Shown here one piece after another: positions 2,878 through 63,971 of a stretch of 64,000 nt of DNA (within the stretch, counting starts at the first letter, position 1; the number at the start of each line of letters is the position of its first letter). The DNA is from an uncultured bacterium (GTDB lineage Bacteria; Patescibacteriota; Gracilibacteria; BD1-5; UBA2023). The stretch spans positions 454 to 64,453 of the forward strand of contig CAIVSN010000116.1 in assembly GCA_903908595.1 (NCBI GenBank), in the 5' to 3' direction. Under the pieces are notes generated by a model, which worked only from the letters and a program-made list of their open reading frames with translations, was not told the DNA's origin and did not search any database. Position numbers and translations under genes: made by a program.

Positions 2878-4269
2878 TTAGAATTTTTCGTGGTAAATAT
2901 GCTCGAATCCCCGGGATTTGAGCGCTTTGACGCTCGATTCCACCAATTGCGGATTCCCGCAGACATAGAACTCGCAACCCTCGGGGAAATCCAATTTCGT
3001 CACGTCGATCCTCCCCGTCTCAAAACCGGCGGCGGTTTCGCGGGAGAGGTACGTGACCGTTTTGAGGTTCGGAATTTTTGCGAGCCGGTCGGCATAGAAG
3101 CGGCTTTCGGAATCCCGCACGCCGAAGAGGAGGATCTTTTCGGTTTCCGGAATATGCGACATCATATTGACGATTGGCGCGAGCCCGGTGCCGGTAGCGA
3201 TGAACGCCTTCTTGGAATCGGTAGGCCGCAGGACGAAAGAACCGGAGACGTTTTCGATTCGCAGCGTATCCCCGACTTTCAATTTTTTCAGCGCGTTGCC
3301 TCCTCTCCCTTCGGAAATCCTAATGCAGAAGGTCAGCTTCGACCGATCGGAATCCACGACGGAATACGGGCGGACGAACGTGCCGTCCCGATCCGAGAGC
3401 ACCACCCGGGCGTATTGTCACGGGATGACCACGAACGGCGTGGCCGTTTCCACCACGAGTTCCATGGTCGTGGAATTCAGCATGGCAATCTGCCGCACCG
3501 GAGCGTCTACCGGCTCCCGGTCGTCGGCCGGCTCGGAAACGGGCACGAAATCCCTTTTGGATACCCCGCAGACCGGGCACGCCCAATCGTCCGGGATGTC
3601 CTCGAACTTCGTCCCCGGCGCGATGCCGCCGTCCGGATCCCCGAGTCGTTCGTCGTAGACGTACCCGCATGGCACGCAGAGGTATTTGGTAACGGGTTTT
3701 CCCAATGGGTTCGCTTGCCCCTTCCGGGAAGCGTCCTTGCGGAAAAATGCCACGGTCCGGAAAAATATCACGGCGCCGATAATCGCCATATACCATTCGT
3801 CGAACCTCGAAGCGAAGGCGATATGGAGCGCCGCCATGAGGAAGAGCGGGTACGCGAGGGTTTGGATTTTTTTCCAAAAACCTTTCAGCAACCGCACGGA
3901 AACATCGTTGGAAGTGACGCCGAGCAGGAAAATTATCACAAATGCCACCGTCCCCGAAGCAACGTCCAGTTCCAAGAAATGTTCCAGGACGAAGAAGGTT
4001 TTCTGGTATGCGTATTCCGCGTAGAAATATACCGCCATATGCCCGATCGCGAGCAAAAAGGCAAAAATCCCGAACGTTCTCCGATACGGCGCCCAACCGG
4101 GGCGTTCGGTCAGGGCGATGATCGGGGTGACCGACATCGCGAGGGCGAGATACAGGAAAGAAACCCTCCCAAAATCCCGAAGCAGCAGGTTCGCGGTTCA
4201 TGGGTTCATCGCGTAGAACGTGACAAAAAGGACGGCTCCGGGAACAAGGGAAAGCAGGTATCGGGTCAT
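2878..4269 (-). CDS. Fusion protein: ferric-reductase-like transmembrane domain + rubredoxin + FNR-type FAD/NAD(P)-binding oxidoreductase (NOX/FRE-like architecture)
   Basis: Same-frame track ORFs 3418-4137 and 2878-3405 are joined by TGA 3418-3420, and extend upstream across TGA 4198-4200 to ATG 4267-4269. TM part: [11 protein letters not shown]...LHIAF. Rubredoxin knuckles: CVPCGYVY...WACPVCG. FNR motifs: RPYSV, GTGLAP, CGNP. Ends in TAA. Confidence 0.8.
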
Positions 4270-17738: not shown

Positions 17739-18179
17739 CTATTTCGCCAAACCCTCCGAATGCCGCTTGAAATTCTCCAAGATGGCGCTCCAGCCCGCGA
17801 TCTGCATTTCGTGGGAATGGACGTCTTCCGCGTCGAAAATCTCCGTAACCCGTATCCCGTCGGGCGTTTCTTCGAAAACGACTTCCACTTCCCGGCCGGC
17901 CGGGAGGAAATATTCCTTCATCTCGCCCATCGTGTAGGAGACGCGTTTCATCGGCTCCACCAGGTCGTACCGGGCGGTGAAATCGAAGGAAGCGCTCCCG
18001 TCTTTCGCGGCGAACGTATTGCAAAACACGACGCCGACCCCGGGTTCGGGAGAGTCGGATTTCGGGCAGTGCCAATCGTCCGAGGCGAAGCACCAGCGGA
18101 CGATGTGTTCGCTCTTCCAGAAAGCGTCCCAAACGGTGGGAAGCGGAGCGTGCACCAGGGTAGATACGGTAAGTTTCAT
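17739..18179 (-). CDS. SRPBCC/AHSA1 (START-like) domain protein
   Basis: Intact 146-aa track ORF. MKLTVSTLVHAPLPTVWDAFW...GWSAILENFKRH is typical of Aha1/BPI-like SRPBCC proteins. Ends in TAG. Confidence 0.7.
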   Translation of the reverse strand: MKLTVSTLVHAPLPTVWDAFWKSEHIVRWCFASDDWHCPKSDSPEPGVGVVFCNTFAAKDGSASFDFTARYDLVEPMKRVSYTMGEMKEYFLPAGREVEVVFEETPDGIRVTEIFDAEDVHSHEMQIAGWSAILENFKRHSEGLAK

Positions 18180-18260
18180 AGGGAAAAAATAGGTGATGGA
18201 GCGTCGTTGTATTTTTTACGGAAGAAGCGAACCGGCGGATTGCCAATGGATTGGAGGCGA

Positions 18261-18605
18261 TTATTTTTTCTCTGCCGACGTTTCCCCGAAAATCATAGTA
18301 ACGATAGCGAGGACAATGGCAAATACGGCGGCTGACAAAAATCCGTCCAATACGAATCCCGGTACGATTTTTGCGACCAGCATCACCATGAGCACGTTGA
18401 TAACAAGGGAAACGAGCCCGAGCGTCAGGAGGTTCAGGGGAAGCGTCAGCAGCTTCAAAACAGGCGTGATGGTGGCGTTGACCACGGCGAGGACGACCGC
18501 GACGATAATCGCCGTCACGTACCCGTCCACGTGGGATCACGGGGTGAAATAGGAAGCGATGGCGATTGCCAGCGCGGAAATCAGAAGGTTCAAGATGATG
18601 GCCAT
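18261..18605 (-). CDS. Phage holin family IV / DUF360-type small membrane protein
   Basis: Track ORF 18261-18530 is joined across TGA 18537-18539 to ATG 18603-18605. MAIILNLLISALAIAIASYFTP[G]SHVDGYVTAIIVAVVLAVVNATITPVLKLLTLPLNLLTLGL matches the family, with the TGA falling on the conserved PG. Ends in TAA. Confidence 0.75.
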
Positions 18606-18778
18606 ATGGGGAAAATTAGGAATACGGCCTGACATTATACGCGTATGTGCGGGAATGGGTAAAGATAAGCCGGGGGGCGGGGGGATTTCATGATTTGATA
18701 TCATCAAATATAGCAAATACGGGAAAATTCCATACACTTCGCTTATGAATGGATTGTATTTTTTAAATTTTATAAGAT

Positions 18779-19324
18779 ATGTTCAACACGTTCTTTTCTT
18801 TTTTGATAAAGCCTACTGAAGTTACCAAGGAAATTTTATCTTTCGATAATAAAACGAAGGATATCGTTACGGTATCGATAGTCGTTCTTTACTTCATATC
18901 CTGACAGTTACTTGCCTATATGATGTTGCCGGAACTATATCTGCTCTGAATTTCTGCCTTGTCCGTTGTCACGGCATTTGCAATGTCATTTATCGGGTTT
19001 TACTCGTTCAATCTTGGAATGCAACTATTCGGGAAGGCAATTGGTGGGAAAGGTTCATTTAGGGATGTAAGCGTCGTGACGGCGTATTCGATGTTTATCT
19101 ACGTTATCTTGACCCCTCTGATTTCCATTGTCTCAAAGGTGCTTTGACTCGGGTTTATCGGAACTGCCAGTATGCTTATACCATTGGTCTGGTTCTTGAT
19201 AATATATTCGAAATCACTATCGCAAGCACAGCAATTTTCTGAAACCAAGGTATTGGTAAATGTGCTGGTTGTTGGTGGCATATTCTACTTTATCATTGCT
19301 GTTTTACCAAAATTAGGTCTTTAG
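18779..19324 (+). CDS. Yip1-like integral membrane protein, in an AT-rich segment
   Basis: ATG 18779. Frame-2 sequence including track ORF 18959-19147 is joined across TGA 18902, 18947 and 19145. Ends in TAG 19322-19324. Has five hydrophobic helices. Confidence 0.6.
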
Positions 19325-19458
19325 GGTAAACTTGTACTTGGGCTCTTTTCCCTCAGTGTCGATTCCGCTTTCCAAGCGGACTCTCGCTTCGGGAAACGCC
19401 TTGCGACAAGCTTGCCATTCCAGGCAAGCTTTCCCCGGCTCGCCGCTCCGCGCTCGCC

Positions 19459-19490
19459 GGTGTCGCTGCGGTTCGAGCCCCGCCAAACCC
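19459..19490 (+). pseudogene. Fragment copying the tRNA-Lys 3' portion (T-arm plus acceptor 3' strand), inverted relative to the gene
   Basis: ggtgtcgctgcggttcgagccccgccaaaccc compared with tRNA-Lys AGGTCGCGGGTTCGAGCCCCGCCAAACCC. One G is deleted from the T-stem. Confidence 0.7.
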
Positions 19491-19503
19491 GGCGTCCCGC
19501 GTG

Positions 19504-19530
19504 AAAAAACCCGCTTGCGCGGGTTTTTTT
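19504..19530. terminator. Bidirectional intrinsic terminator
   Basis: aaaaaacccgc-ttgc-gcgggttttttt, located between the Yip1-like gene (+) and the ankyrin gene (-). Confidence 0.75.
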
Positions 19531-19572
19531 GGAGTTCTGATGGTGGGTTACCCAACTCCGCTAAACATGTTT

Positions 19573-20793
19573 TTACCTCAATACCTGAAGCATCTTTTCT
19601 CTGAAAACATCGTTTTTAATTTGAGAAGCATAATCAATGGCCGATTGATCAAGCGAATCCATTAAATTTGGGTTTACTCAAAAATCTATTAATAACTTCG
19701 CCGTCCTGACTGCTTCTTCAGAAGCACTTGACTGTTCTTTTTTTGGTAAGGTATTAAAATTATGAACAAGATAATCATTAAGATAGAGACGTTCCTGAAT
19801 TTCTAAAATCAATGCAGTGCGTCCAAGATCATCTACTGTATTTGGATTTGCATCAATGCTTTTGAGGTAATCAAAATCATTTTTTGTTAATCCTCTTAGT
19901 CGATCAAACCATACGGGGGAATGGTATGATTCCTTATATGGATAACGGGCTGGTCCCCATATCGAAGCAAACAAAGTGATATTTACATCTTTAATGCCGA
20001 GGCATCTTCCTGATATCAGAAAGTACGACATATTCCCGCCATGCCTATCATTAAGAATGATTTGTTTGAGTTTTTGGCAACCGTGTGACCATTCTTGGGA
20101 ATTTGGAAACTGTCATATACATAGAGCATATTGGGAGTATGTTCCAGACAAACCACTATCGAGCGTATTGATTTTACCACACATATTGGAATCTTTATTT
20201 TTGATTGCTTCTTGTATTAATTGTAACCTTTTACACGAATCACTATAAACATACATGTTATCACAAGAAATCGGGTCATTTGAATAAATAGTTTTTGAGG
20301 TAATTTCTTCGAGTTTACACGAAGCATACATATGTGTATTGGGAGTATATATTGAGCAACTTGCATTTTGTTCTACAAAAGACTTATAATTTGCACCTTG
20401 CAAACAACCACTATACCAGCTGTTCCAAGTTGAGAGCATAGATTTTTCTTCTCCTTGAGATATTCATGCTAATGGTAGTTTGCAAAACATATCATTTCCT
20501 GTTACTTGTGCTAAGGAGCTTGAAAAGATTACCAAATTTTTCTGCCAAACAAATAAACTGCAGATTAGAATTGGAATTAGGAGTGCAAATTTTTTTATTG
20601 ATATTTTGGGCTCTAACTTTCGTGATTTTACAATTTTCTTAATCGATAGAAAAATACCAAAGATTACTATTGATATATGGGCATAGTAAACAAAACTGAC
20701 GAGCTTATACCAGATAAATAATTCAATCATATACATTCTGATTATCCGATAAGATTTATTTGCATTAAAACAAGTAAATACCATTCTCGGCAT
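19573..20793 (-). CDS. Membrane-anchored Cys-rich protein with C-terminal ankyrin repeats, in an AT-rich segment
   Basis: Same-frame track ORFs 20464-20793, 20113-20439 and 19678-20031 are joined by TGA 20464, 20113 and 19678. Ends in TAA 19573-19575. Ankyrin-like: DANPNTVDDLGRTALI and LLIDF[G]VNPNLMDSLDQSAIDYA. The start is uncertain; ATG 20736 is an alternative. Confidence 0.6.
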
Positions 20794-20887
20794 TTACTTG
20801 TTTTGTCTTTCGTTACTTTCTTTTATCAAAGCCAATCTTCTTCCCCTCACCGAGAGGAGGTAAAAAAGTTTGACGGTCTTGGTACAA

Positions 20888-20963
20888 TGGTGGGTTTGGC
20901 GGGGCTCGAACCCGCGACCTTGGCCTTAAAAGGGCCCTGCTCTACCTGCTGAGCTACAAACCC
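20888..20963 (-). tRNA. tRNA-Lys (anticodon UUU), CCA encoded
   Basis: Minus strand reads GGGTTTGTAGCTCAGCAGGTAGAGCAGGGCCCTTTTAAGGCCAAGGTCGCGGGTTCGAGCCCCGCCAAACCCACCA. The anticodon loop is CTTTTAA. Confidence 0.9.
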
Positions 20964-21066
20964 AAAAAAGTGGGTCTCCAATCCTTCTCATTTTCTACTT
21001 CGGGGGCATTGTAGACAAAGAACCCGGAAAGTCGAATTTATTTTGAAATTTTCGCCCCTTCCATTC

Positions 21067-21094
21067 CTTGCAAACCCCGGCATATATGATACTA
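21067..21094 (+). promoter_or_regulatory. Candidate promoter of the giant gene (TTGCAA-N16-TACTAT with an extended -10 TG)
   Basis: -35 TTGCAA 21067-21072 and -10 TACTAT 21089-21094, with TG at 21086-21087. It lies about 30 nt upstream of ATG 21125. Confidence 0.45.
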
Positions 21095-21124
21095 TGGCCC
21101 CTAGAAAGATATCCGATCCCTTCC

Positions 21125-24100
21125 ATGTCCGTATTTCCCAAACCAAGCAGGCTCAAAAAATGGGTTTCCTCACTCCTCATTTTTACCATGTTCGCGAGCC
21201 AGACGGTGCAATTCCCGTTGCTGGTTCCCAGGATCTTCGCGGAAGGCAGCGACGTTCCGAATTTGGTATCGATCATCGTCAGCGAGTCCGTCTTTACTGG
21301 CAACACGAAGGACAAAATTTCCCAATATTCCAAGGATATCCAGGCTTCGATGACCAATACCCGGGTCGTCATCGTGAACGTGCCCGACAACATCGCCCCG
21401 CACAGCATCGCGGCGCTCAATGAAAAACTCTACTACGAAGGCGACGGCGACGGGATTTCCCGGCTCGTGGGGACCGTCCTGATCGGGAAACTCCCGATTC
21501 CCGTGGTCCACAACGGAAGCAAGAGCTTTCTCAGCATCTATCCGTATACCGACTTCGACGAAAAGGTCTTCATGTTCGACGTGGAGAAGGGCTACTACGA
21601 GGCTGGAAGCGGACCCGTGGAGCATGACAGCCCAGAAATCTGGCACGGGGTCATCCAGCCGAATTCCGGGGATTCCGCCACCGACCGGGCCAAACTCGAA
21701 CAGTACCTCGACAAGACGCACGATTTCTATGCGAAGCAGGGGGTGTTCGCCAACATGAGCCAGACGCCCTACGTTTTCTATCTCGACATCACCCACGACC
21801 AGGAAGCCGCGAGCGCTTCCAATTGGAAGGCGTACAACCTCGGCCTCGAATACCTGGAAGATCTTACCTACAAGCGCTTCAACAAGCACCTGGCCAAAAC
21901 GCTGTACGACAAGTTCCAGGGCATGCAGGATTCCACGGCGGATCTGACTTCCGAGGAAAAAGCCGAGCTCGGGGCCGCTGGGGTGGACATTCCGCCGATG
22001 GCCGATTCCATGGATTTTTCCAGTTCCCCGGACATCCAGACCCGCACCGCCATCACCGAGGTAACGAAGCAGTTCTTCGAGATTTTCAACGAAAAATACC
22101 TCGGGGACATCCTCAAGTTCATCTACAACACGGGAAGATACGGCGACGGGAGGGATACCCGGGCCGATATCGCTCCGGTACTGGTATCCAAGCGCGACGA
22201 ATTCATGAAGCGGGTCATTAAGGACAGCAATACCGCGCTCGAAAACAGCATCGACCAGCTCGTGAAATCCGGCCTCGCGATCGATCTGGCCATTCCGACC
22301 GACGTCAAAATCACCAAAACCGGCTCGGGCGCTGACGCCAACAACCCCGTTCCGCCGATATACCGCAATTACTATTATGGGAAATTGGCGAGTTCCATTA
22401 CCAACGCGAAGGAGTGCTCCATCGTCCGGGGTTCTACGCTCCCGGTCGAAGCGAACCGGGGATACAATATCCTCAACGTCGAGCCGGATTTGCAGAAGCT
22501 TACCCAATATTCGACGCTGTGCTTCCCCGGAGGGCTTCCCGCGACGATGGACTGGTGGGGCGGCAACAGCCCGCTCAACGTGAAGACCGATTCGTTCACG
22601 GCGGCGGATTTGGCGATCTTGCAAAGCGCGACGGGCGGAACGGACCTCTCCGCCTACGAAGGCAAGCTCTCCACCAAGTTCGAGCTCAAGGGCAACGTCT
22701 ATAAGGATTACGTCATCCAGACCTTCGATCTCCTGGGGCAAAGCGAAATCTCGCGTACCGGAGCGCTCCGCGTCAATTCCCCGTCGGATTGTCTCGCCTC
22801 GAACTATATCGCGGATCCGTTCGTCGGAAAATCCGAGGATGGGATGTCATTTTCCCAATTCCAGCATCCGCAGACTACGGGGGGGACGCAGTTCGTCTGC
22901 GTGATGCGGGACAGCAAGGGGGTGCTCGGCCACAAGTTTTTCGTGCAATCCAGCACGACCCTTTTCGCGGACGCCATCGCCGACCGGATCAACCCGCCCC
23001 TCTGTACCGTCGTCAAAGTCAATCTGGTGGGAGGTTTTTCCAAGCAGTTCGGACGGCTGTGCGATGAAGAAGTACCGGTGGCGACCACGGGAAACGGAAC
23101 GGGAGAATCCTCCGGAACGGAAACGGTGACGACCGGGACGACCGAGGAGTACGACTTCAAAAAGATATCTTCCTGGATCGTCCACAAATCCCCCACGGAC
23201 GAAGAATACGGGGCCGCCGTCAAAGGCATGACCACTCCTTCCCTCGCGAGCGACGGGGACCGCTACATCGACTTCATGGGCCCTGCGGGAACCGTCCAAA
23301 AAATCGTCTATCCGAATTTTTTCCGGCTGAACAACCAGTCCTACGAGGCCGCGTTGGCAACGGCAGGAACCTGAGGCAGCACGTTTTTTGGCGATCTCGT
23401 GACCGTCGTGGACCACTCCCTCGCCTCGGCCGGCTGAGGCACCGTGGCCAACACTGGGGCCAGCCTGCTTTCCGGCAATATGCCCGACCTGACCATCGAT
23501 ATGGTCAAAGATTCCATCAAGGCGGTCCTCGATAAGAAAAGCGCCGAAATCAACGCCATTATCAACGCGCAGGATCCGGCGCTCCTCACCGGGGATCAGG
23601 CCGCGATCTACCAGCTCATGAATACCGGCGCCTATCCGGCCGCCAACGTCGATCTCTATACGATGGTCGCGAGCAGCGGGAACATGCTCACGACCCTGGC
23701 GGATACCATCCTCTGGTACAACCGCACCAACGCGACGAGCAAGTATTCGTTCATCCTCGAGAATTACCTCGACCGCGACGGGAACCGGGACTACCCGCTT
23801 TCCGGGCACCATTCCGATTATGAAATGGGATACATCGGCGGACCCGGCGACGCGCAGAACATGTACGTCAAGGTCGACCCAGAATCCAAAGGCACCCTGT
23901 CGAAAGACATTACCGACATCCAGGCCGACTACGGTTCCCTCGTAAACCTGCTGGACGCCGCGAACGTCGCCGAGTACAGTCCCGAAGATTCCCAATTCAA
24001 GTGCGGGCCGCCGGAGGGCGTGGTCATTTGGAAATGGCTTCCTGCCGTCTTCTGCTGGCTCGGGACGATTCTCCCGCCGACCATTTCGGCCGGATCCTGC

Positions 24101-27100
24101 GGACCGCAACTCGGCTCCGATACGGACAAGGGGCAAGACCGCGATTTTTTCACTTCGATTCCGGGCACGGACGGCAAGCTCGCCTGGCAGCAAGACCTCG
24201 ACCATAACGGAATCCTCGACGGATACGAGTGGGTCAAGGACGGGGAAATCAAGCTTGCCGCTTCTCTCAAGCGGATCGGATACCGCTCGGGCGCGGCGCT
24301 GACGGCCGATCTCACGAAGGACGGCCGGATTCTCGCCCACGATTCGTACAACCAGGTATTTTTCGACGTCAAGAAAATCACGCTGCTGAAGGGTCAGAAC
24401 GATCTCGAAGGCAATCCGGTGACTTCCGACAAGATCGTCTACGTCCGGGGAGGAACGGGAGCCGCCGGAAGCATCGAGACGCTCAAAAAATACGTTTTCT
24501 TCACGCCGATCGCGGTCCGGGCGGAGGCGGGAACGGCCACCTACGGCATCCAATCCATCGACCGGGACATCGATATCGATATCGTCGCCACCGTCGCTCC
24601 GAAAGACAAAAACGGAAACGTCGCCTTTTCCAAGGATTCCAATCTCATTACCCTCAAAGTCCGGGACGAAGCGCTCAAAATCGGTACGGAAATCCAGGAA
24701 ACCACCGGAACCGGATCCCGGGTCGATCCGACCTTCAAGGCGGGAGACGCGAGCAAAATCACCTTCAAGTTCACGGTATCCGGGAAAAATCCCGAAACGC
24801 CGACGGCCGCGAAATCGCCCATCAAGATCAAAATCCTCGACGACGTCGACGGAACGGAGCTTACGCCGAGGCCGGCGGATATCGGCAGCGACACGTTCAT
24901 TTATGCCGGAAACCTCCTGAAACAGGCCGGGAATTACCGGTTCGAATTCGTCGACGCGGAAGACCGGTACGGCACCGTCATGGTGAACGTCCTCCCGGGC
25001 GACCCATTCAAGATCGAAGCCGTAGCGGCCTCGAACATGTTCGTGAAAGGCCAGAAAAATATGGTCCTCGTAACCGTGAAGGACCGATTCGACAACTACG
25101 TCAAGGGGGACTTGCTCCAGGTCGCCGGCACCGTCGACGGGGGCGCGTATTTCACGGAAAACCACGATGCCGCCAATTCGAAAAGCACCGTCGAAGGCGT
25201 ATTGAGCTTCGAGATGAGCGCCGACGCCGGAAGCACGGGCAACAACACCCACAAATTGGATTTCAGCACCGTCGACAGCAAAGGCGCGACCATCAAGATG
25301 GCCACGCCGCTGACCGTCCAATCCATCGACTACGCCAAGATCCAGGTAAACGTCGCGAACCGCGGCAGCCTGGTGGCCGGAGGTTCCGGACAGACCGTCA
25401 CGCTCAAGATTACCGACAATCTCGGGCAGGTATTGACCGGGTTCAACGGGGTCGCCAGTCTGGATTTTCCGAAAAATTCCGGATTCTTCAGCACGCCGTT
25501 CGTCCAAATCACGAACGGGACCAATTCCGGCGCCCTGACCTTCACTCCGGGAACGGTCGCGATCCTCGATGCCAAAATCGACGTGCAGGTCCCCGGGATC
25601 GTCGACGTGGAAGGCGGAACGCTGAGCATTCTCCCGAACGTGCCGATGCGCGTGGGACTCCTCTCCGATACCGCCAAATTCGAAGCCAAGGTCGGGAATT
25701 CCGCCGGGATTACCGCGCAACTGTTCGACCGGTACGGCAACATCGCCTACAATCACCCGGCCGGAATGTCGGCGAATTTCACGATTCCGAGCGGTTACGG
25801 CAAGTACGGCAGCATCAGCGGGGGGAACGTGCCATTCGCGAACGGGGAAGCCAAGGTCCAAATCAATTCCAGCAGCAGTCCGGGCACCCTCTATTATATG
25901 GTGGAAGTCGCTCCCGGACTCGAAACGAATACCTTTACCATAGAAGGGGAAAATATCGACACGACCCCTCCGACGAAAACTTCCGTCACGATCAAGGGGT
26001 ATTCCAAAAACGTCGCCTACATCGAGAGCTACTACCTGTGGAACGCGGAAAAACTCGCGAAAACCAACTACAACGTCCTCTCCACCACCCTGCTCGGGGC
26101 CGACTACGGAAACGTCACCGTTCCGAACTATCTCGCGGGCGAACTGATTTTCAATTCCGGCAGCTCGTCGATGGCGGTCACGACGCTCCTGGGCAACGCC
26201 GAAAAGCGGGACGAAATCGTCCAGATGACCCCGGGAGGAAAAATCGTCCTCGACCGGGGCCAGACGGCCGAAGTCCAAATCGGTTCCAACAAGAACCGGA
26301 CGACGCTCGATATTTTCGACCCGTTCAAACGGGAAAATATCGGAAGGTTCTATCTCAATACCAGTCCGGCGACGCCGACGTTCGCATGCGCCACGGACGA
26401 AGCGGACGAAATCGACGCCTGCGACTTCCAGGGCAAGGAATCCTATATGGTCCTCAAGGGATTGGGCGAGGCCGAAGTGACGAAGATCGGCAACCGGCTC
26501 AGCCTCGGTTTCGACGGCATTCCCGTCTTCGAAATTTCTCCGGACGGAACGATCACCAAGTATCCGAACGTCACCGTGGAAGCGGACGGGGAAGAAAGCA
26601 GGAATCTCCTTTCGCTCTCCATCGTCAGCAGCGGCATCAAAATCGGACGGCTCGGCATCAAGTGGGACGCTCCGGAGATTATCGTCAGCTCCCCTTCGAC
26701 CCTCGACGCAGCGCTCGCGAGCCACCCCGGCACCATCGTCTACGAGGGCATTTCTCCCCGATACGGCATCAAACAGGACAACCTGGGGAATACTTCCGCG
26801 GGAGACAAGGGCCTCAAGATTTTCGCCCAGAGCGAAGACGTGGAGACGGACCGGGATCTCATAGGATCCTCCGGCAAGCTGGGATACGAGGAATACGCCA
26901 AAAACAAGGGGATCGGATTCGGCGACGGCAACAACACCCAACTCGAATTCGCGAGCCAATCCACCGTCGGGCAATCCGCCAAATCCTTCGCGACCTACTC
27001 CGAAATCGTCATCGGCGACCCGGTCGCGAGGCTTCCGGAAATCCTCTCTCCCCAGAACTTCGACCGAACCCTGGGAAAAAGGCTCATGAGCAGCGCCGGC

Positions 27101-30100
27101 GGAATCATCGAATCCTATTCGACGATCGACTACAACCGGGACAACATGCAGGACATCGTCGTCTTCTACCAGGACGGCAAGGTCGAGCTCCTGCAAAACT
27201 ACCGGTGAACCTACAAGAGCCTCGGCTATCTCCTCTACGTCTTCGACGCGGGCAAGGAACGCAAGGGCGCGGGGGATTTCAACGGCGACGGCTACGGGGA
27301 CTTGGTCATGGTGGACCAGGACGGCAAACTCATCGTCATCCAAAACCGAAAGGGCAAATTCGTCCGCGTACCCGCAAAAATCATCGACCAAGCCGGTGCC
27401 GAAGCCAAAATCGGCGGATCCGTCATGCAGCTGGAAATATTCGACATGGACAAGGACGGCAAAACCGACATCGTCATTTCCGACGATTCCGGAGAATTGA
27501 ACATCCTCTACGGCGGCGGCACTCCGGACGACGTCGTTTTCACCAAAAAATTGCTCGACGACGGCATCGGAATCAAGCTGGGAACCGGGGAATTCACGAA
27601 CGGCGGGGCGATCCGTTTCGACGGCATCAAGGAAATGACCCCGTTCACCCAGACCGGGTACGTCATGGAAACCGAGGCTTCCAGCGCGGACGCCGACGTC
27701 GAAACACTCAGCCTTCCGGACCAAATCCGGCTCTTGGACAGCAAAATCTACTACCAGCAAACCGTCTACGAGGAAGTTCAGAACCCGGCGGAGGCCCAGA
27801 ATATCCGGCTGCTCAGCGGAGTGGGCGACGATCCGGACAATCCCGGCGTCCCTAACCAGGCGCTCGCCGATGAGATCAGCCAGACGATTCTCGATTTGCA
27901 GAACCAGGCGGCGAGCGGCAGCATCGACACGAGCGAACTCACGAACGCGACGATCGAAAAGCAGCGCTCGTTCCTCCGATCCGAATTCGCGGACGGAAAA
28001 GACATAAAAATCGCAAAAAAATATACCGATAGCAACGGCGGGTTCCTTCAGGCGGGGGATCCGATCCTGGTAACGATCGACGTGACCAATGCCGGAAGCG
28101 CTCCCCTTTCCGGAGTCATCTATCTCGACAGTTACGAAAAATCCGTGTTCCAGCCGGGAGAAAACGATTCGTATGCCATTTACGGCGGGTCGGGCAGCAT
28201 GATGGGAACCGGGGCTTTCGCCGCCTTCACGGGAAGCACGTTCTTCGACGAACTGGCAACGGTCGTGGACCATTCATTGTCCGCGGCCTCGGGCGGCTGA
28301 TCGGCCGGAAGCGCCGCCGCCACGGGATCTGCCCAAGACGGGCTCATTGGCACCGGCAGCCTCGACCAGCTCACCGAAGGGGAATTCGACTTCCAATTCG
28401 GAACGCTGACCATCCCCGTGGGCCAGAAAATCACCATCAAATACCTCCTCAAGGCCAATGCTATCTCCGTCGGGAAATTCCACGTGGGCGTACTCGAAAC
28501 CGATGACATATACGGGGACGTCAGCATGAACGCGAACTCGGTCTGCTGAGACCAGGAATGGCTTTGGAAATCCATCGTACCGACTCCGAGAACGTATTCG
28601 GCAAGAACCCTCAGGGATATCCCGGAGAGCGGCGACGTAGCCGGTACCCAAAAGGGCAAGTTCACCGATTTCAACGGCAACGGATCCCCGGACTATATCG
28701 ACCTCCTTTCCGGAACGGGCGGTAACGATTCCATGGCGTCCTCGCTCTGGGATCCAACGCGACACGGGATCCTGGTTTTCCGCGAAACCTCGACCGATAC
28801 CGGGCTGGACGGAACGAATTTCGAAGTCGGACGGGTCGTCTCCAATTCCGAAACGGGGTACGTCCAACTCAACCCCGTATCCGTAAAGGAAGACGTTCCC
28901 GTTCTCGCGACGCCGGCGCTCGCCAACGGGACGATCAACGGAAACGAACTCGGCGCCGGAAGCGTCAGCAACGTCCTGACCGGAAGCGTTACCAATACGC
29001 TGATCACGACCGCCTGCGGACAACCGGGCACTTCCGTTTCGGATCTCCGGCTCACGGGATACCGGCAGATCTATCATCCGAGCGTCATGTCGGACATTAC
29101 GGGAAACCTCTCGCTCGTCGCCGTCGGAACGTCGAAAACCCTCGACGCTTCTGGAAGCGTCATCGGTACGGGCGACTGCATGATCGACATCAATTCGACG
29201 TCGAATCCGGCATGGGACGGTACCAAGGTCACCGGGCTCGGCTGGAAACTCCTCACCAAGGGAACCTTCCAGCACTTCAGCCTCGGGGGCACGCAATCCA
29301 ACCTCATCGCCGAGTCCGTCGGAATTCCCGACAGCCACGAACCGCTCGGAAGCGATTTGTTCACGTTCGAAAGCGATGGGTCGCTCATCGGGGGAACCGT
29401 CGACATCGGGGGCATGTCGGACGAAAACATCGACAAGGTCAACGGGGCCATCGATACCATCGTCCAGGGCCTCGGGTGCGGATTCGGAGGAGGTAGCTGC
29501 CTCTCCATGCCGATGAACTGGGCCCCTCTCGCCCCGGGTTCCGCTCCGGTCGTCATGGGATTCCCCATCGGGGGACTCAGTCCGTCGACGGGTTTCCCGG
29601 TATTCAGCAGCCTCACGGGCATCCAGACGATGTGCGGCAAATCGCCTTGCTGCATACCGAGCGTTTTTCCCATAAGCCCCCTCGCCTACGTACCCGGACC
29701 GGCTTGCGGATCCCCGAGCGCCGGAGGATACCTGGGCACCTGGGCGCCAACCAACACGTTCCGCTTCTATATCACCCCGACCATCACGGGAGCCGTGGGA
29801 ATCGCCGCGTGTTTCGGAGGTACGGCCATGGTTACCGGACGAATACCGCCACAGGCCGTATCGCCGCTCGTGCCGGGAGGCAACTGCGTCGTCGCGGCCA
29901 AGCCGCTCCTCGGCTGCAAGGACGACGGTTCCGACGGGACGTTCGAGGACTTGTGAAGCACCGATAACGGAACCCTCAATGCCGGATCCTGCAAGAACCA
30001 ATCCGACGAGGAAACCGTTTCCGCCGAAGACCAGGAAAAAATCCGAGCCTTCGTCCGCGGCGACAATACCTTCGTGAGCGATATCGTCAAAAATGCCGCG

Positions 30101-33100
30101 GGCCGCGGAAGCATGATTATTCCGAACGGTCCCCTGCTCTCCATCTGAGGCCGGGGCGGAAGCGGAGCCGGCAGCTTCGAGCTGGCCATCGATCTCAAGA
30201 GCATCAAGAACTTCGATATCGGCATCATCACCAAAATCAGCAACCAGCGGGTTTCCGCGTTCCCGGATTTCATCATGGACTGGGTCAACCGCCAATTGGA
30301 AGAAGTCGCCAACAAACTCACGAGCCTCCCGACGCTGTATATCATCAAGCCGGATTTCCGAGGCGTCATCGACGGCAACTGGAACGGGTTCACGGAGAAG
30401 CTCGGGAAAGCCTACGGTACCGGAAAGAAAAACGGCAGTCCGGTACTCGGCAACGAAAACGCCGGCCGGAGCATTTCCGGCGTCAAGTCAGCCTACGAAT
30501 TCATGTCCCGGCTCCCCCTTATCAAATTCGAGAAAACGACCCTGGACATCTCCTATCCGGACATCGGCCAGGAAGACCTCAACAAGGCCCTCAAGAATCT
30601 CAAGAATACCAAGGCCCAATGGGAGCGGGAGATTTCGAGCAAGAAAGCCCTGTACGCGGGCACGTTGACCGCTACCGGCATGGACGCGAGCATTATCGTC
30701 CGGTCGGAATGACTTATCAGCAGCATCAACCAGAACATCCGAACGATAGAGGAATACAAGAAATTCCCGGAAAAACTCGCGAAGTACCTTACCTGGAAGG
30801 AACGGTATGCGGCGCAATTGCTCTGCAATATCACGGCAATCCAAAACATGCTGGACAGTTTCATTACCAAGAATGCCATCCGCTTCAAGGCCTGGGTCGA
30901 GTTCTTCGAACTGCTCAAGAACATCCTCAAGGGCTGGCAGCTCATCCCGGACCTCTTCTACAAGAACGAGGCCGAATGCGGGGTGTGCCGCAACGAGCGC
31001 TACGACGCGAAGCATTTCATGTTCAAGCTCATCAAGGCCATCATACCGCCGCTTCCGATCATCAAGTTCCCGAAGTGGCCGGACATCATCTTGGACCTCC
31101 ACAACGTTCGGCTCGGCCTCCGCATCGCCATGCCGGAATTCGTGTTCCACCCGACCCCGATCGTCCTTCCGAGATTCCCGAATCTCGCGTTGCCGACGCT
31201 TCCGAAACTGGGCATCGGTTTGCCGAGCATTCCGACGCTTCCGAGCCTGCCGCCGTTACCGGAATTGCCGGATATTCCGTCGCTTCCGCTCATCACCCTT
31301 CCGGAACTCCCGCCGCCGCCGACCATCCCGAAGCTCTTCGGAGCCATCAAATTCACGTTGAACATCCTCAAGATCATCGCGAAGGTCCTCTGTATCATGC
31401 GTTCGAATCCGTTCGTGCCGGAATGGCGCGCCGGAGACCAGATTGCCCAGATTACGGAACGGCAGGGCAAAATGAAGCTCGACTTCCTCAATATCGAATT
31501 CCCGCAGTTCAACGCGAGCTTCGTCGATGCCATCAAGGTGACGACCTACGTGAATTTCGAGTTCCAGATCGACTTCCTCCTCGAAATGGCCAAAGCCACG
31601 TTCGAACCGATCAACGCGTTCACCTCGAACCTCTCGAACATCGTTCCGAACGCGACCAAGGACATCCTTCCGAACAAAGTGGACCTCCGCGGGCTCAATC
31701 CGGGCAACCAGAAAATCCAAATCGGTCCGACCGGAATGGAAGGCAAAAACCCGTTCGTCAAGCAATACGCCCAAACGTTGGCCCAAGCATTCGTTACGAC
31801 GATCAAGCAAGGACAATTCTACGCGAACGAATCGGCGGCCTACGAGGAAATACGGGAGAATCTCGCCGACGAGCTCGCCCATACCCACGCGACCCCGGGA
31901 ACCCCGGGATTCGCCATCCTCGAAGAAATGCGGGAAGGACTCCGGATTCGCGGCGATGCCGAAGCCGAAGCCCTCGCGACCGAACTCCGAAGGGACAACG
32001 ACGAAAAGTTCAACCTCGCGAACGGTTTCGTCAAATCGGAGATGCACGAAATCACGGAACTCCAGGCCCAACTCCACCTCGTGCAAACCGGCAAGAAGGA
32101 CCTCTCGGATATTTTCGGGACCCGGAAAAGCGGGGGAAATGCCGAATTGACGGATTCCGCGAACCCGTACAGCACCGAATCGGAACTTCCAGATTTCACC
32201 AAATTCAACGAACGGGCCTACGTCGCCTATTCCGAACTCCTCGCACCGAAGCCGGACGACGAACTCGTGACCATGGGAAAAAATCTCAAGGACAGCATGC
32301 AAGCCTATTCCGCGGAAGCCGAGAGGAAGTCCGCCGAATACTGAGCCGGAACTGACATTGCCGGCGGAGGCGAACTCGCGAATTACGAATACCGCGGCAT
32401 TTATACCAAGGACAACGGTCGGCAGATCCGGCTCTTCGATTACACCAACGACCTCATGGGAGACGAGAGAGCCGTCCAGGTCGACCGGCTCGGAAACGGG
32501 GCGATAGAATATATCTACCTGAGCGGGGACGGATTGTATCTCAAGACCAAACTGGGGAATTCCGGAACCTCGGCGACGAGCGGAAGCGCTTCCACGGGCG
32601 GAACCGGTTTCTTCGACGAACTCGGCACCGTCGTGGACAATTCCCTGTCCATGGCTACGGGAGGAACTCCGACTGCCAACACCGGAGGTGGGACTTCGGG
32701 CAGCGTCACGACCAGCATTCCCGTCTACCGGCTTTCCGGCATCATCGATCTTCCGAATTCCGAAACGTTGCGGCCGACCGCGCCGAACCGTTTCGTGGAA
32801 AGATTCGTGGCTTCCGGGGAAATCAACTTCTCGTTCCGGCCGGCCGACTTGGTCAACGACACGATTTTTCGAATGGAATTCTACGATTATATCGATCGCT
32901 TCGACCTGCGGATGAGTGGGAAAGACTGGAAGGATATCGCGCCGACCACCCGGGTTTCCTACGTGGATCTCGTCCCGGAATTCACGGGCGAAACCGTGAC
33001 GGACGCTTCCAATACCGGCATCATCCTCCAAAAACCCTATGCGAAATACTTACAGGGAACCGGGAACGGATTCATCAGCGGGGCGGACTACCGCACCCTC

Positions 33101-34630
33101 TGAGCCGGCTCGAAGATTCAGGTTGCCGCGAGCAAATCGATCTATGCTGACGGAGGCGGAGCGAAAATCGCGTACAAAATCGCCGACAGCGCGGCTTCCG
33201 TTACGGGCAGCACGGTGACCATACCGAATTCCGGAGAACTCAAATTCTTGGACAACATGGACATGGAAGTCCTGAACGGAAACGTCATCCTCATTAACGA
33301 GAGTTCGAGCCCCGTACGGCGGCCACAGGATTTTCAGAAACTGAACGGGCTTCCCGTCATCCTGGGTCAGAAAATAGAAATTCCCGCGACGACGGCCCGG
33401 CTCAATATCGAGTATTACAACGGCGCATCGCTCCGCATGGACGGGCCGAGCCTCTATGAAAGCCACGAGCTCGGAGCGAAATCCGACGAATATGACGTGT
33501 CGCTCCGCCAGGATAACGGCTGGTACTACGCCAGGCTCGAAAGCGTTTCGCCGAGCCCCCGGACCAGTACGCGGATCACGCTGCTTTCGCCACAAATGGA
33601 AGCCGACAAGGAAGCTCCGCTCATCGAGGTCGCGGGAGGATTCCGGGCGCCGGTCTATCTCGACCGTGCCATAGACTTACGCGAACAGATTACGGACGTT
33701 TCCGGCATCAGCGACGTGTTTATCGACACGGATCTCGCGGCCGATTCCGACCGGGATGGGCAAATGGACAACGACCGGGATTCCGACGCGGCCGGATCGA
33801 TATTCAGAAAGGGCAGCTCCAATCTCGAATGGATCGTCAAAGCCCAGGATCGACTGTTCGAGAAGAAAATCAAAATCTGGGCCGGGGACGAAAGCGGAAA
33901 TTTGGCAGGAACAGAGACGGATCTCCGCATCTATGCCCCGGTTCCGAATATTTCGACCCAATCGGGAACCACGATTTTCGGAAACCTCGACGAGTCGTTG
34001 GACGGCGAACCGACGGATATCGTCCGGTACCGCAACGGCAAGATTTCCCCTATCGGCAACGCGGCGCTTACCCAGAGCGGCGGGGAATTCCTCAATACCT
34101 TCGGCACGAATACCGGAATAGCCATCAGATGACCGTCGGGCGAATTGGCAAAAATCAACGAAAACACCGGAAAACTCACCCTGAGCGGCAGCGAGAACGA
34201 ATTCGTCGTCCTCCCGGCCAACGCCGACGTCCCGATGCGGATCGAAATCCAGAAGAAATCGGATCATTCCGTCCTCTACTCGCAATCCGTAGCACTGGGA
34301 AGCGCCGGGAAGATAGAACCCGTGTCCAGCCTCGCGGAAGCTCTCGCCAAAGCGAAATGAGGCCTCGGCGTACGTCTCGATGCCGGATGGAATTTCGTCC
34401 GGAACCCGGGCAATAGCCCGTCGCTTCCAGGAGGCATATTCGTCACGGACGCGGACATGAAACCGGTGTTCGGTATCGCCAAGGATGGCAACGTATACTT
34501 CCTGAAATCCTCTGGACTCAGCCTGAAATACGGAACCGAACAGGACTACTTCGTCATCGAAGTCCGCGACGCGGACCATCTCGTCGGAACCCTCTATTAC
34601 GTACTCGATGCCGAATATGTCATCAAATAG
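21125..34630 (+). CDS. Giant secreted surface protein (~4,500 aa) with FG-GAP/VCBS-like, Ig-like and DUF11/CARDB-like segments and a Pro-rich region
   Basis: Nine frame-2 track ORFs (21068-23374, 23444-27208, 27302-28300, 28733-29956, 30275-30712, 30818-32344, 32456-33103, 33215-34132, 34145-34360) are separated only by 12 in-frame TGAs. The first TAA/TAG in frame is TAG 34628-34630. Signal-like MSVFPKPSRLKKWVSSLLIFTMFASQ. FG-GAP-like GDFNGDGYGDLVMVDQDGKL and DMDKDGKTDIVISDDSGEL. Pro-rich LPSLPPLPELPDIPSLP. Confidence 0.85.
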
Positions 34631-62498: not shown

Positions 62499-63971
62499 AT
62501 GGCTATCACATCCCGCGCGACCGACTATTCCCAATGGTACCTCGACGTCGCCAAATCCGGCGACCTGTTCGAATATTCCCCGACCCCCGGCTGCATCACC
62601 TTCCTCCCCAAATCCGTGACCATGTGGACCCGCATCCAGAAGGCCATGCAGGAGAAGCTCGACCGGCTCGGCGTCCAGAACGTCTATCTCCCGATGCTCG
62701 TCCCGATGAGCTTTTTCGAGCGGGAAAAGGACCACGTGGAAGGATTCGCGCCGGAACTCGCCGTCGTCACCATCGGCGGAGGCAAAACGCTTGAGGAGCC
62801 CCTCGCCATCCGGCCGACTTCCGAGCTCCTGTTCTGCGATTTTTTCAAGGACAAGCTCCAGTCCTATCGCGACCTCCCGATGCTCTATAACCAGTGGGTA
62901 TCCGTGCTCCGATGGGAAAAACGCACCCGACCGTTCCTCCGCACCGCGGAATTCTACTGGCAGGAAGGCCACACCCTCCACGAAAACCGGCCCCAGGCGG
63001 ACGCCTTCGCGCTCGACATCCTCTGGAAGGTCTACATCGAGACGATCGAGGACGTCATGGCCATCGGCGGAATCGCCGGCCGCAAGTCTTCGAGCGAAAA
63101 ATTCGCCGGAGCCGACACCACCTATACGTTCGAGCCGATGATGAGCAACGGCTGGGCGCTCCAAATCTGCACGTCCCACCTCCTCGGACAGGGATTCATG
63201 GAAGGGTTCGGCGTGAACTACCAGGACCGGGACGGGGCACTGACCCATCCGTGGTACACTTCCTGGGGACTCTCGACCCGGTCCATCGGGGGGATCATTT
63301 CGAGCCATTCCGACGATCGCGGGCTTATAATTCCTCCGAAAATGAGCGAATTCCAAGCGGTCATCCTCCCGCTTTTCACCAAGGAAAACACCGAAGCCAT
63401 CGGGGAATACGCCCGGCAAATCGCCCGGCTCATCGTCGGGGAAACCGCGAGCGAAGTCCCGGTCCACGGAGAATATTTCCGGGCGCTCGTCGGAGCCGGC
63501 GGCAAGGTCGAGCTCGACCTCCGGGACGCGAGGCTGGGAGAGAAAATCACCGACTGGGAAATCTCCGGATACCCCATCCGCATCGAGTGCGGCGAACGCG
63601 ACCGACAAGCCGGGAAATGTGTGATCGCATCGCGGATCACCGGGGAAAAATCGATCGTCACGCTCGACGAAGTCGTGGCGACCGTGTCGAGAATGAACGA
63701 GGAAGGCCAGGCCAAACTCCTCGCGGACAGCCGTCGGAGACTGGAAGAAAACACCGTGGCCTGCTTCGGCATGGAAGACATCGGCAACGCCATCGAAGCC
63801 GGGAAGTTCGCCATCTGCGAATGGGACCAGGACCCCGAATTCGAGAAGGAAATCAAGGAAAAATTCAAGGCGACGACGCGGTGCATCCCGTTCGAGGGAC
63901 AATTCACGGATGAATTGCTGCCTTTGACCAAGGAAGGAACGGTTCGGGTCGTGGTGGCGCGGAGTTTTTAG
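62499..63971 (+). CDS. proS: Proline--tRNA ligase (archaeal/eukaryote-like type)
   Basis: Intact 490-aa track ORF. Similarity includes YLDVAKSGDLFEYSPTPGCITFLPKSV, FAPELAVVT and RPTSE...FLRTAEFYWQEGHT. No in-frame TGA. Ends in TAG. Confidence 0.9.
   Translation: MAITSRATDYSQWYLDVAKSGDLFEYSPTPGCITFLPKSVTMWTRIQKAMQEKLDRLGVQNVYLPMLVPMSFFEREKDHVEGFAPELAVVTIGGGKTLEEPLAIRPTSELLFCDFFKDKLQSYRDLPMLYNQWVSVLRWEKRTRPFLRTAEFYWQEGHTLHENRPQADAFALDILWKVYIETIEDVMAIGGIAGRKSSSEKFAGADTTYTFEPMMSNGWALQICTSHLLGQGFMEGFGVNYQDRDGALTHPWYTSWGLSTRSIGGIISSHSDDRGLIIPPKMSEFQAVILPLFTKENTEAIGEYARQIARLIVGETASEVPVHGEYFRALVGAGGKVELDLRDARLGEKITDWEISGYPIRIECGERDRQAGKCVIASRITGEKSIVTLDEVVATVSRMNEEGQAKLLADSRRRLEENTVACFGMEDIGNAIEAGKFAICEWDQDPEFEKEIKEKFKATTRCIPFEGQFTDELLPLTKEGTVRVVVARSF

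Follow-up and report, generated by a model that had tools for sequence, protein, structure and literature searches.

The subject of this study is a giant gene on a 64,000-nucleotide stretch of contig CAIVSN010000116.1 (assembly GCA_903908595.1), which comes from an uncultured bacterium of the Gracilibacteria and which we refer to in its entirety as the window. The gene (21125 to 34630, + strand; ~4,500 codons with TGA read as Gly) encodes a protein in which a 13-residue motif occurs three times, each time flanked on both sides by a linker rich in Gly, Ser, Thr, and Ala. Comparison with related genes indicates that these linker-motif-linker units, which we call cassettes, are optional and unstable, being kept intact together or lost or degraded together, and that the motif pattern is under selection in three lineages and has been lost or degraded in two lineages nested among them.

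Three copies of the motif in one giant protein

The gene occupies a stop-to-stop open reading frame (ORF; 20930 to 34630, + strand) that includes 13 in-frame TGA codons and holds all three motif copies in one frame. Its 5′ end is bounded by a tRNA-Lys gene on the opposite strand (20888 to 20963), and its likely start is the ATG at 21125, with the ATG at 21086 as an alternative. The ATG at 21125 is followed by a putative signal peptide (MSVFPKPSRLKKWVSSLLIFTMFA), and the protein is probably secreted or located at the cell surface. We read TGA as Gly because, of 135 comparisons for the 57 TGA codons of four orthologs, 104 pair TGA with a GGN-encoded Gly and none pairs it with Trp, indicating that the host is a genetic code 25 bacterium. 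Since standard-code gene calling splits the gene at TGA, it is present in public databases only as 10 to 20 fragments. The sole Pfam family recognized in the protein is FG-GAP_3 (residues 2051 to 2118, numbered from the Met at 21125; 36.4 bits versus a cutoff of 26.9), and no sequence relatives were found in the PDB. Code-25 predators of the candidate phyla radiation (CPR) are already known to have giant surface proteins that bear integrin-like and DUF11 domains (PMC8080830).

Copy 1 of the motif (23375 to 23437) translates as GSTFFGDLVTVVDHSLASAG followed by a TGA codon and Gly, copy 2 (28232 to 28300) translates as GSTFFDELATVVDHSLSAASGG followed by a TGA codon, and copy 3 (32600 to 32665) translates as GTGFFDELGTVVDNSLSMATGG; the pattern that they share is F-F-x-[DE]-L-x-T-V-V-D-x-S-L. 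These copies and the low-complexity linkers around each of them had been reported in an earlier note made from the window alone, and both observations were confirmed. Besides the translations, FFx[DE]LxxVVDxS[LF], written as a degenerate DNA pattern, gave three exact matches in the window and none in 100 dinucleotide-preserving shuffles, and a repeat search recovered three 65-nucleotide copies (family D2) with identities of 69 to 75%. Cassette 1 (site 1; 23348 to 23488, + strand; AALATAGTGGSTFFGDLVTVVDHSLASAGGGTVANTGASLLSGNMPD) contains motif core 1 at 23384 to 23422 (FFGDLVTVVDHSL). Cassette 2 (site 2; 28184 to 28354, + strand; GGSGSMMGTGAFAAFTGSTFFDELATVVDHSLSAASGGGSAGSAAATGSAQDGLIGT) contains core 2 at 28241 to 28279 (FFDELATVVDHSL) and lies in a loop within a beta-sandwich domain. 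Cassette 3 (site 3; 32564 to 32698, + strand; GTSATSGSASTGGTGFFDELGTVVDNSLSMATGGTPTANTGGGTS) is a 45-residue insertion found only in the lineage of the window, and its core (32609 to 32647; FFDELGTVVDNSL) has core 2 as its nearest neighbor. The cassettes are 45 to 57 residues long in the window and reach ~85 residues in relatives.

The earlier note had also pointed to TGA-encoded Gly beside the motif. The codons are real, adjoining the motif at 23372, 23435, and 28298, but a special association with the motif did not hold up. The cassettes contain ~34 of the 458 Gly codons and 3 of the 13 TGA codons of the giant protein, the TGA codons 3′ of copies 1 and 2 occupy the same place in a common tail (...GGC TGA), and the orthologous cassettes of relatives have no matching Gly at the TGA position. 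The association is accounted for by the Gly-rich linkers together with the shared ancestry of copies 1 and 2, and we therefore dropped the idea that TGA and the motif are functionally linked.

Cassettes are discrete insertions among orthologs

Relatives were collected through three regional homology searches and contig look-ups. Full or long orthologs came from the loci L001, L002, L005 (GCA_036170835.1), and L223/L224, and more distant ones came from L103 (GCA_031422145.1), L104, and L225 (ENA ERZ909572), together with several fragments. The proteins of the window, L001, L002, and L005 are collinear over ~4,400 residues and 68 to 75% identical, and aligning the four revealed 12 indel regions that are 6 or more residues long, 9 of which fall within the aligned protein body. 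Cassettes at four sites, numbered 1, 4, 2, and 3 in their order along the protein, make up five of these nine indels (site 2 being split in two), the largest included. In this alignment, then, the linker-motif-linker cassettes are discrete indels.

The combination of occupied sites differed from lineage to lineage. In the window, sites 1, 2, and 3 carry cassettes and site 4, in an FG-GAP blade just downstream of the FG-GAP_3 match (27449 to 27541, + strand; junction …ELNILYGG/GTPDDVVF), is empty. L001 has a divergent cassette at site 1 and a tandem pair at site 2, sites 4 and 3 being empty, and L002 has cassettes at sites 1, 4, and 2 and none at site 3. L005 lacks a cassette at all four sites, with that of site 1 missing as a block. 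In L223/L224, the cassettes at sites 1 and 4 are degenerate (FFTEPSSISDTSF and LLNNITSAITQSL, respectively) and that of site 2 is deleted (site 3 not covered). Sites 4, 2, and 3 are empty in L103 (site 1 not covered), as are sites 4 and 2 in L104 (sites 1 and 3 not covered). Among the fragments, P0009 has no cassette at site 3, and P0016, P0017, P0018, P0022, and P0025 to P0030 have none at site 1. Where site 3 is empty (L001, L002, L005, L103, and P0009), KLGNS is joined directly to (V/E/I)P.P.T. The regular spacing of 1,400 to 1,600 residues noted earlier is thus a property of the window that is not conserved, since other lineages occupy other combinations of sites. The absence of the motif from orthologs, which the earlier note had set as a test of its reading, was encountered in part: L005 has no copy, the covered sites of L103 and L104 are empty, and copy 3 is confined to the window.

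In neighbor-joining trees, L002 grouped with L223/L224 with a bootstrap value of 100, and L005 joined them at 64 to 81. Because L005 and L223/L224 are nested within the motif-bearing clade, their empty and degenerate states represent losses. The sequence NLFFGD at the right edge of site 1 in L002 was considered as a truncated second motif and rejected as conserved flank, the corresponding residues being SLLSGN in the window and NLLAGN in L223.

The more distant orthologs lack the motif. Two of them, 38 to 40% identical, have different linker-helix-linker inserts: in the L225 ORF, SLEEILRELD is flanked by S/P/T/A linkers at site 1 (amino acids [aa] ~727 to 775), and in P0024, DFFTQLAELQSSIL is flanked by G/S/T linkers in a fifth loop, near aa 915 of the window protein. 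Proteins of this family may thus display tethered helices from their loops more generally. The window protein also has a G/S/T-rich linker without the motif (23081 to 23146; aa 718 to 739; ATTGNGTGESSGTETVTTGTTE), and fragment P0021 has a longer S/T/G run (GGTSGSTTSSSTTPSGG), apparently at the matching place. This segment looks like another variable loop of the giant protein.

The motif core has the periodicity of an amphipathic helix

Across the nine intact copies, the core follows the pattern F-[FL]-x-[DE]-[LI]-x-x-[VIT]-[VI]-[DEN]-x-[SA]-[LF] without a single indel. Positions F1, [DE]4, [LI]5, [VI]9, and [LF]13 are kept in all nine, and positions 3, 6, 7, and 11 vary freely. In every copy the hydrophobic moment peaks at 90 to 100 degrees, with values of 0.41 to 0.55 that are matched by no more than 5% of shuffles (for core 1 of the window, 0.41, exceeded by 2.8%), and it is low at beta-strand periodicity. 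The net charge of the motif ranges from −1 to −4. On these grounds the motif has the predicted signature of an acidic amphipathic alpha-helix of ~3.5 turns.

The linkers, by comparison, are alike in composition and differ in length by 17 to 44 alignment columns. Between genomes, cores at the same site are 23 to 62% identical, a range that does not exceed that of the linkers, with their biased composition, and that falls below that of the flanking domains (60 to 72%). With same-site identity this low, the constraint lies on the pattern and not on the sequence.

Copies evolve in concert within a genome

Core pairs within a genome share more residues than pairs between genomes (9.3 versus 7.0 of 17; permutation P = 0.003), with orthologous pairs at the same site averaging ~7 of 17. 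Signature residues specific to a genome recur across its copies, namely, L13 in the window, F13 in L002, and N6 in L001. This fits concerted evolution of the copies, either through coevolution with one partner or through gene conversion.

Cores 1 and 2 of the window are identical at 13 of 17 residues, 8 of which use different codons, so that their likeness points to selection and is not explained by recent copying alone. Cores 3 and 2, also identical at 13 of 17 residues, use different codons for just 4. The nucleotide-level conservation claimed in the earlier note accordingly describes part of the data: the string that it quoted fits copies 2 and 3, and copy 1 uses other codons. Site 4 is older than the divergence of L002 from L223/L224, yet in L002 sites 4 and 2 have the same codon for 9 of their 10 identical residues, and gene conversion between these two sites is evident from the codons. 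DNA similarity between copies is limited to ~50 to 65 nucleotides, that is, to the motif itself. Taken together, the comparisons indicate that duplication and gene conversion carried the cassettes to new places in the gene and that deletions removed them as clean blocks. This history of hopping between loops of a single gene is unusual and well resolved.

Cassettes sit in loops within domains

The earlier note had proposed that the copies mark module boundaries. However, no homologous modules lie between them, as self-BLASTP of the giant protein (E ≤ 10, word size 2) returned no internal repeats, the self-hit being the only hit. Moreover, copy 2 interrupts one beta-sandwich, and the cassette found at site 4 in relatives lies in an FG-GAP blade, following the strand …ELNILYGG of that repeat. 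At least these two sites are therefore loops within domains, and cassettes there do not mark module boundaries. The first reading of this DNA is therefore partly supported, in that the observation is real and the interpretation as boundaries with regular spacing is not supported.

The position of cassette 2 was drawn from an AlphaFold2 model of the ortholog P0002, in which the strands of the beta-sandwich (residues 28 to 88 and 140 to 177) have a predicted local distance difference test (pLDDT) score of 70 to 80 and the cassette (residues 90 to 137) forms a loop with pLDDT <50 and a single short helical turn in the motif. In the window, the N-terminal and C-terminal halves of this host domain, as delimited by the modeled strands, correspond to 28001 to 28186 and 28355 to 28495, respectively (both + strand). 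With the cassette removed, the domain gave a subthreshold match to Pfam DUF11 (E = 0.035; 14.9 bits versus a cutoff of 24.6), and a Foldseek search of the PDB with the site 2 model gave only nonsignificant matches to generic beta-sandwiches. The AlphaFold2 models are weak, with a mean pLDDT of 31 for the site 3 region, which was unusable, and 45 for the other. From the low-complexity flanks and the pLDDT values of <50 between confident strands, the cassettes are predicted to be exposed and flexible.

The motif is confined to one gene family

Outside the giant gene, neither the 64-kb window nor any of eight related loci contained a copy of the motif. A strict DNA pattern gave 95 matches in 596 Gb of species-representative genomes and 118 in a metagenome contig collection, none of them a genuine copy; we ascribe all of these matches to chance because every one lacks the G/S/T/A flanks. 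A 17-position profile, which is insensitive to divergent single copies, retrieved only the window's own fragment P0011 from 1.84 billion representative proteins, and a search of the metagenome contig collection for related loci found no relatives. On current data, the motif appears to be limited to one small clade of one protein family.

Other features of the giant protein and its surroundings

The most conserved part of the giant protein is a hydrophobic stretch rich in Cys, Gly, and Pro (29450 to 29900; aa ~2840 to 2990; GLGCGFGGGSCLSMPMNWAPLAPG…TNTFRFYITPTITGAVGIAACFGG…), which is 86 to 98% identical among orthologs, is still recognizable in relatives that are ~45% identical overall, and has no Pfam or PDB match. 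One part of this stretch, aa 2900 to 2938, diverges specifically in the two lineages where the motif is gone or degraded. At 31130 to 31340 (aa ~3400 to 3470), a proline-rich LP/IP run (…LPRFPNLALPTLPKLGIGLPSIPTLPSLPPLPELPDIPSLPLITLPELPPPPTIPKL…) leads into a hydrophobic segment of helix-like character (FGAIKFTLNILKIIAKVLCIM) that may be membrane proximal or membrane spanning. A C25-like self-processing protease at the N terminus was considered and dropped, as it had no Pfam support.

Opposite the giant gene, one frame of the − strand stays free of TAA and TAG over 3,384 codons (21101 to 31255), and many further long overlapping frames appear across the window if only TAA and TAG are taken as stops; these look like a by-product of GC-rich codon usage and not like genes. 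The GC content is 45% at 18000 to 22000 and 51 to 60% elsewhere in the window. This low-GC segment, which holds a 406-codon Cys-rich ORF (19573 to 20793, − strand) and the tRNA-Lys gene just upstream of the giant gene, may be foreign or fast evolving. Near the end of the window, an ORF at 62499 to 63971 (+ strand; MAITSRATDYSQWYLDVAKSGDLFEYSPTPGC…) reads like a prolyl-tRNA synthetase; such a gene would make the window cellular and not viral DNA. In relatives, the region 3′ of the giant gene (L001, 17365 to 19934; L002, 15522 to 17991; L103, 10249 to 10566) has a thioredoxin gene on the opposite strand, joined in L001 and L002 by FolD/FTCD_C-like and radical-SAM genes, as marked by Pfam.

DISCUSSION

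Docking peptides were among the functions offered in the earlier note, and it is this suggestion, itself an inference, that fits the evidence best. We tentatively propose, as a possibility that falls somewhat short of probable, that the cassettes serve as tethered short linear interaction motifs with a shared binding partner. Each helix would hang from a surface loop on two flexible tethers rich in Gly, Ser, Thr, and Ala and would fold upon binding a hydrophobic groove of the partner. That groove might lie elsewhere in the same protein, in a neighboring copy of it, or in a different protein. With several copies on one polypeptide, docking would be multivalent and long in reach, combining avidity with reach. 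The motif has not been described before, but it belongs to a familiar type, the short linear motifs that large adhesin-like proteins carry on disordered tethers. Short linear motifs and molecular recognition features share with it the amphipathic helix on tethers, conservation at the level of the pattern, rapid gain and loss, and occurrence in several copies; they are, however, a concept and not a family, and a mainly eukaryotic one, whereas the copies described here belong to a bacterial giant surface protein, from whose folded domains they loop out.

In each of the three lineages whose motifs are intact there are three copies, in differing combinations of sites. A more specific idea is that three tethered helices per polypeptide constitute a stoichiometric, coevolving docking system that would engage a single partner surface. 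As a speculative partner site within the same protein we considered a Cys/Pro/Gly-rich segment (29627 to 29743, + strand; aa 2900 to 2938; TMCGKSPCCIPSVFPISPLAYVPGPACGSPSAGGYLGTW), which is 87% identical among the window, L001, and L002 and 65 to 70% identical in L005 and L223, even though the latter are closer relatives of L002. It deviates by ~3.8 standard deviations from the mean of 553 overlapping windows and is the only region to track the intactness of the motif. The other candidate is a receptor on prey cells, to which the flexible tethers would extend much as colicin translocation epitopes do. We regard this more specific idea as a long shot; if it were true, the cassettes would be a new adjustable clasp or prey engagement device in the giant proteins of epibiotic code-25 bacteria. 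The hints from copy number, signature residues, and the covarying segment are each weak alone, and the recurrence of three copies in each of three lineages and the single covarying region could be coincidence.

Several further points weigh against a docking role. The poor quality of the AlphaFold2 models (mean pLDDT, 31 and 45) is one, the helix that they show in the motif being just 3 residues long; another is the same-site identity of 23 to 62%, which means that the case for constraint leans on the pattern. The cassettes are also dispensable, L005 having none. Finally, the comparison involved a small set: intact motifs come from three lineages, the metagenomic contigs are short, and some nodes of the neighbor-joining trees are weak.

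A first alternative to docking is neutral insertion without a function. If the cassettes were merely tolerated low-complexity expansions of loops that carry a peptide duplicated within the gene, then similarity among the copies would reflect descent and occasional gene conversion. The loss of all cassettes in L005, the decay of those in L223/L224 with deletion at site 2, the gene conversion seen in L002, and the low same-site identity of the cores all agree with such neutrality. What it leaves unexplained is that the core never gains indels while the linkers differ by tens of residues, that six positions hold their physicochemical class in nine copies even though synonymous sites are largely scrambled between paralogs, and that helical amphipathicity is present in every copy. 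Furthermore, the degenerate copies of L223/L224 reflect relaxed constraint and so imply constraint in the other lineages. We consider neutrality rather unlikely. Proteolytic processing, in which cuts within exposed cassettes would release or loosen fragments of the giant surface protein, is suggested by analogy with the P97/P102 adhesins of the genome-reduced bacterium Mycoplasma hyopneumoniae, whose S/T-X-F↓X-D/E cleavage motif lies in disordered regions (PMC3322551). In both systems a short motif of Phe plus acidic residues occurs in disordered, Ser/Thr-rich parts of large adhesins or adhesin-like proteins; the cassettes are exposed, flexible, and of low complexity (pLDDT <50), and their N-terminal half, [ST]-x-F-F-[DE], fits the cleavage motif in some register in four of the nine intact copies. 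However, the other five fit in no register, the conserved VVDxSL half has no counterpart in the mycoplasma motif and would go unexplained along with the helical periodicity, and a cut at site 2 or site 4 would fall within a folded domain and leave modules unseparated. L005, moreover, does without any cassette, and Pfam detected no protease domain in the giant protein. We therefore judge processing to be unlikely.

Two further alternatives were considered. The discrete, in-frame insertions in four or five loops of the gene across lineages recall the palindromic elements of Rickettsia, which set a precedent for peptide-encoding insertions tolerated in protein loops (PMC10969869), and the cassettes might by the same token be a selfish DNA element akin to a miniature inverted-repeat transposable element. 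Unlike those elements, however, the cassettes have no hairpin or palindrome in their DNA or RNA (fold z-scores of −0.61, −0.32, and +0.28), and neither terminal inverted repeats nor target site duplications were found. Their similarity at the DNA level extends over only ~50 to 65 nucleotides, and beyond the giant gene neither the window nor the related loci contain a copy, while the genome and metagenome contig scans gave no genuine one. A selfish origin is thus extremely improbable. With z-scores of −0.6 to +0.3, we also dropped nucleic acid secondary structure in the cassettes as a feature in its own right. The motif might instead be a recognition or nucleation element for modification of the Ser/Thr-rich tethers, for example by O-glycosylation, with the helix recruiting the enzyme. 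It always occurs within S/T/G-rich sequence, and the protein has one other strongly G/S/T/A-rich segment, that at aa 718 to 739 without the motif, so that motif and linker mostly travel together. Yet the linkers of the window are richer in Gly and Ala than in Ser and Thr, and such a role would in effect be a special case of docking; we hold it to be very unlikely.

Resemblances to other known motifs were also considered. Colicins, which act on other cells, have intrinsically unstructured translocation domains that carry TolB- or TonB-box epitopes. Like the motif, these are short epitopes on Gly/Ser-rich disordered tethers, and TVVD loosely recalls the "[DE]T-x-VV" of the TonB box; the motif, however, has helical periodicity in place of beta-strand augmentation, and it does not match the consensus. 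The TonB box as such was rejected, because [DE]-T-[ILM]-V-V is not present, T-V-V-D lacks the intervening residue and occurs in some copies only, and the periodicity is helical and not beta. VAP, a eukaryotic protein, binds the FFAT motif (EFFDAxE in an acidic tract) through its MSP domain. The core shares with FFAT two Phe residues followed by acidic ones (FFD[DE]), but the residue before FF is T, G, N, P, S, or L, position 5 is Leu or Ile and not Ala, the flanks are made of G, S, T, A, and N and are not acidic, and FFAT has nothing like the C-terminal half, and so this candidate was also rejected. A double-glycine leader (LSxxELxxIxGG) was discarded because GG follows EL by 13 to 15 residues and not 6 and is absent from the orthologous cassettes, and a type IV pilin N terminus was discarded because its consensus features are missing. 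A target of a diversity-generating retroelement was set aside because the differences between copies are not adenine specific, although no search for a reverse transcriptase was made.

The giant surface proteins of Vampirococcus lugosii, which belongs to a TGA-recoding lineage, resemble the protein studied here in length (multiple thousands of residues), in a probable membrane or surface location, and in integrin/FG-GAP-like and putative DUF11-like beta-sandwich elements, but the paper that reports them describes no such motif or cassette (PMC8080830). In TGA-recoding CPR bacteria, giant surface proteins of this kind are thought to mediate host recognition (PMC8080830), and they can barely be annotated. 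The finding reported here is narrow, the intact motif being present in only three known lineages, and may be seen as a lineage-restricted curiosity. It nonetheless illustrates that short motifs in giant proteins can be optional inserts and not architectural landmarks, and that standard-code gene calling hides them. Within such a giant protein, the cassette is a small and testable element, and if the motif is indeed a docking motif, synthetic peptides would provide a simple handle for fishing out its partner.

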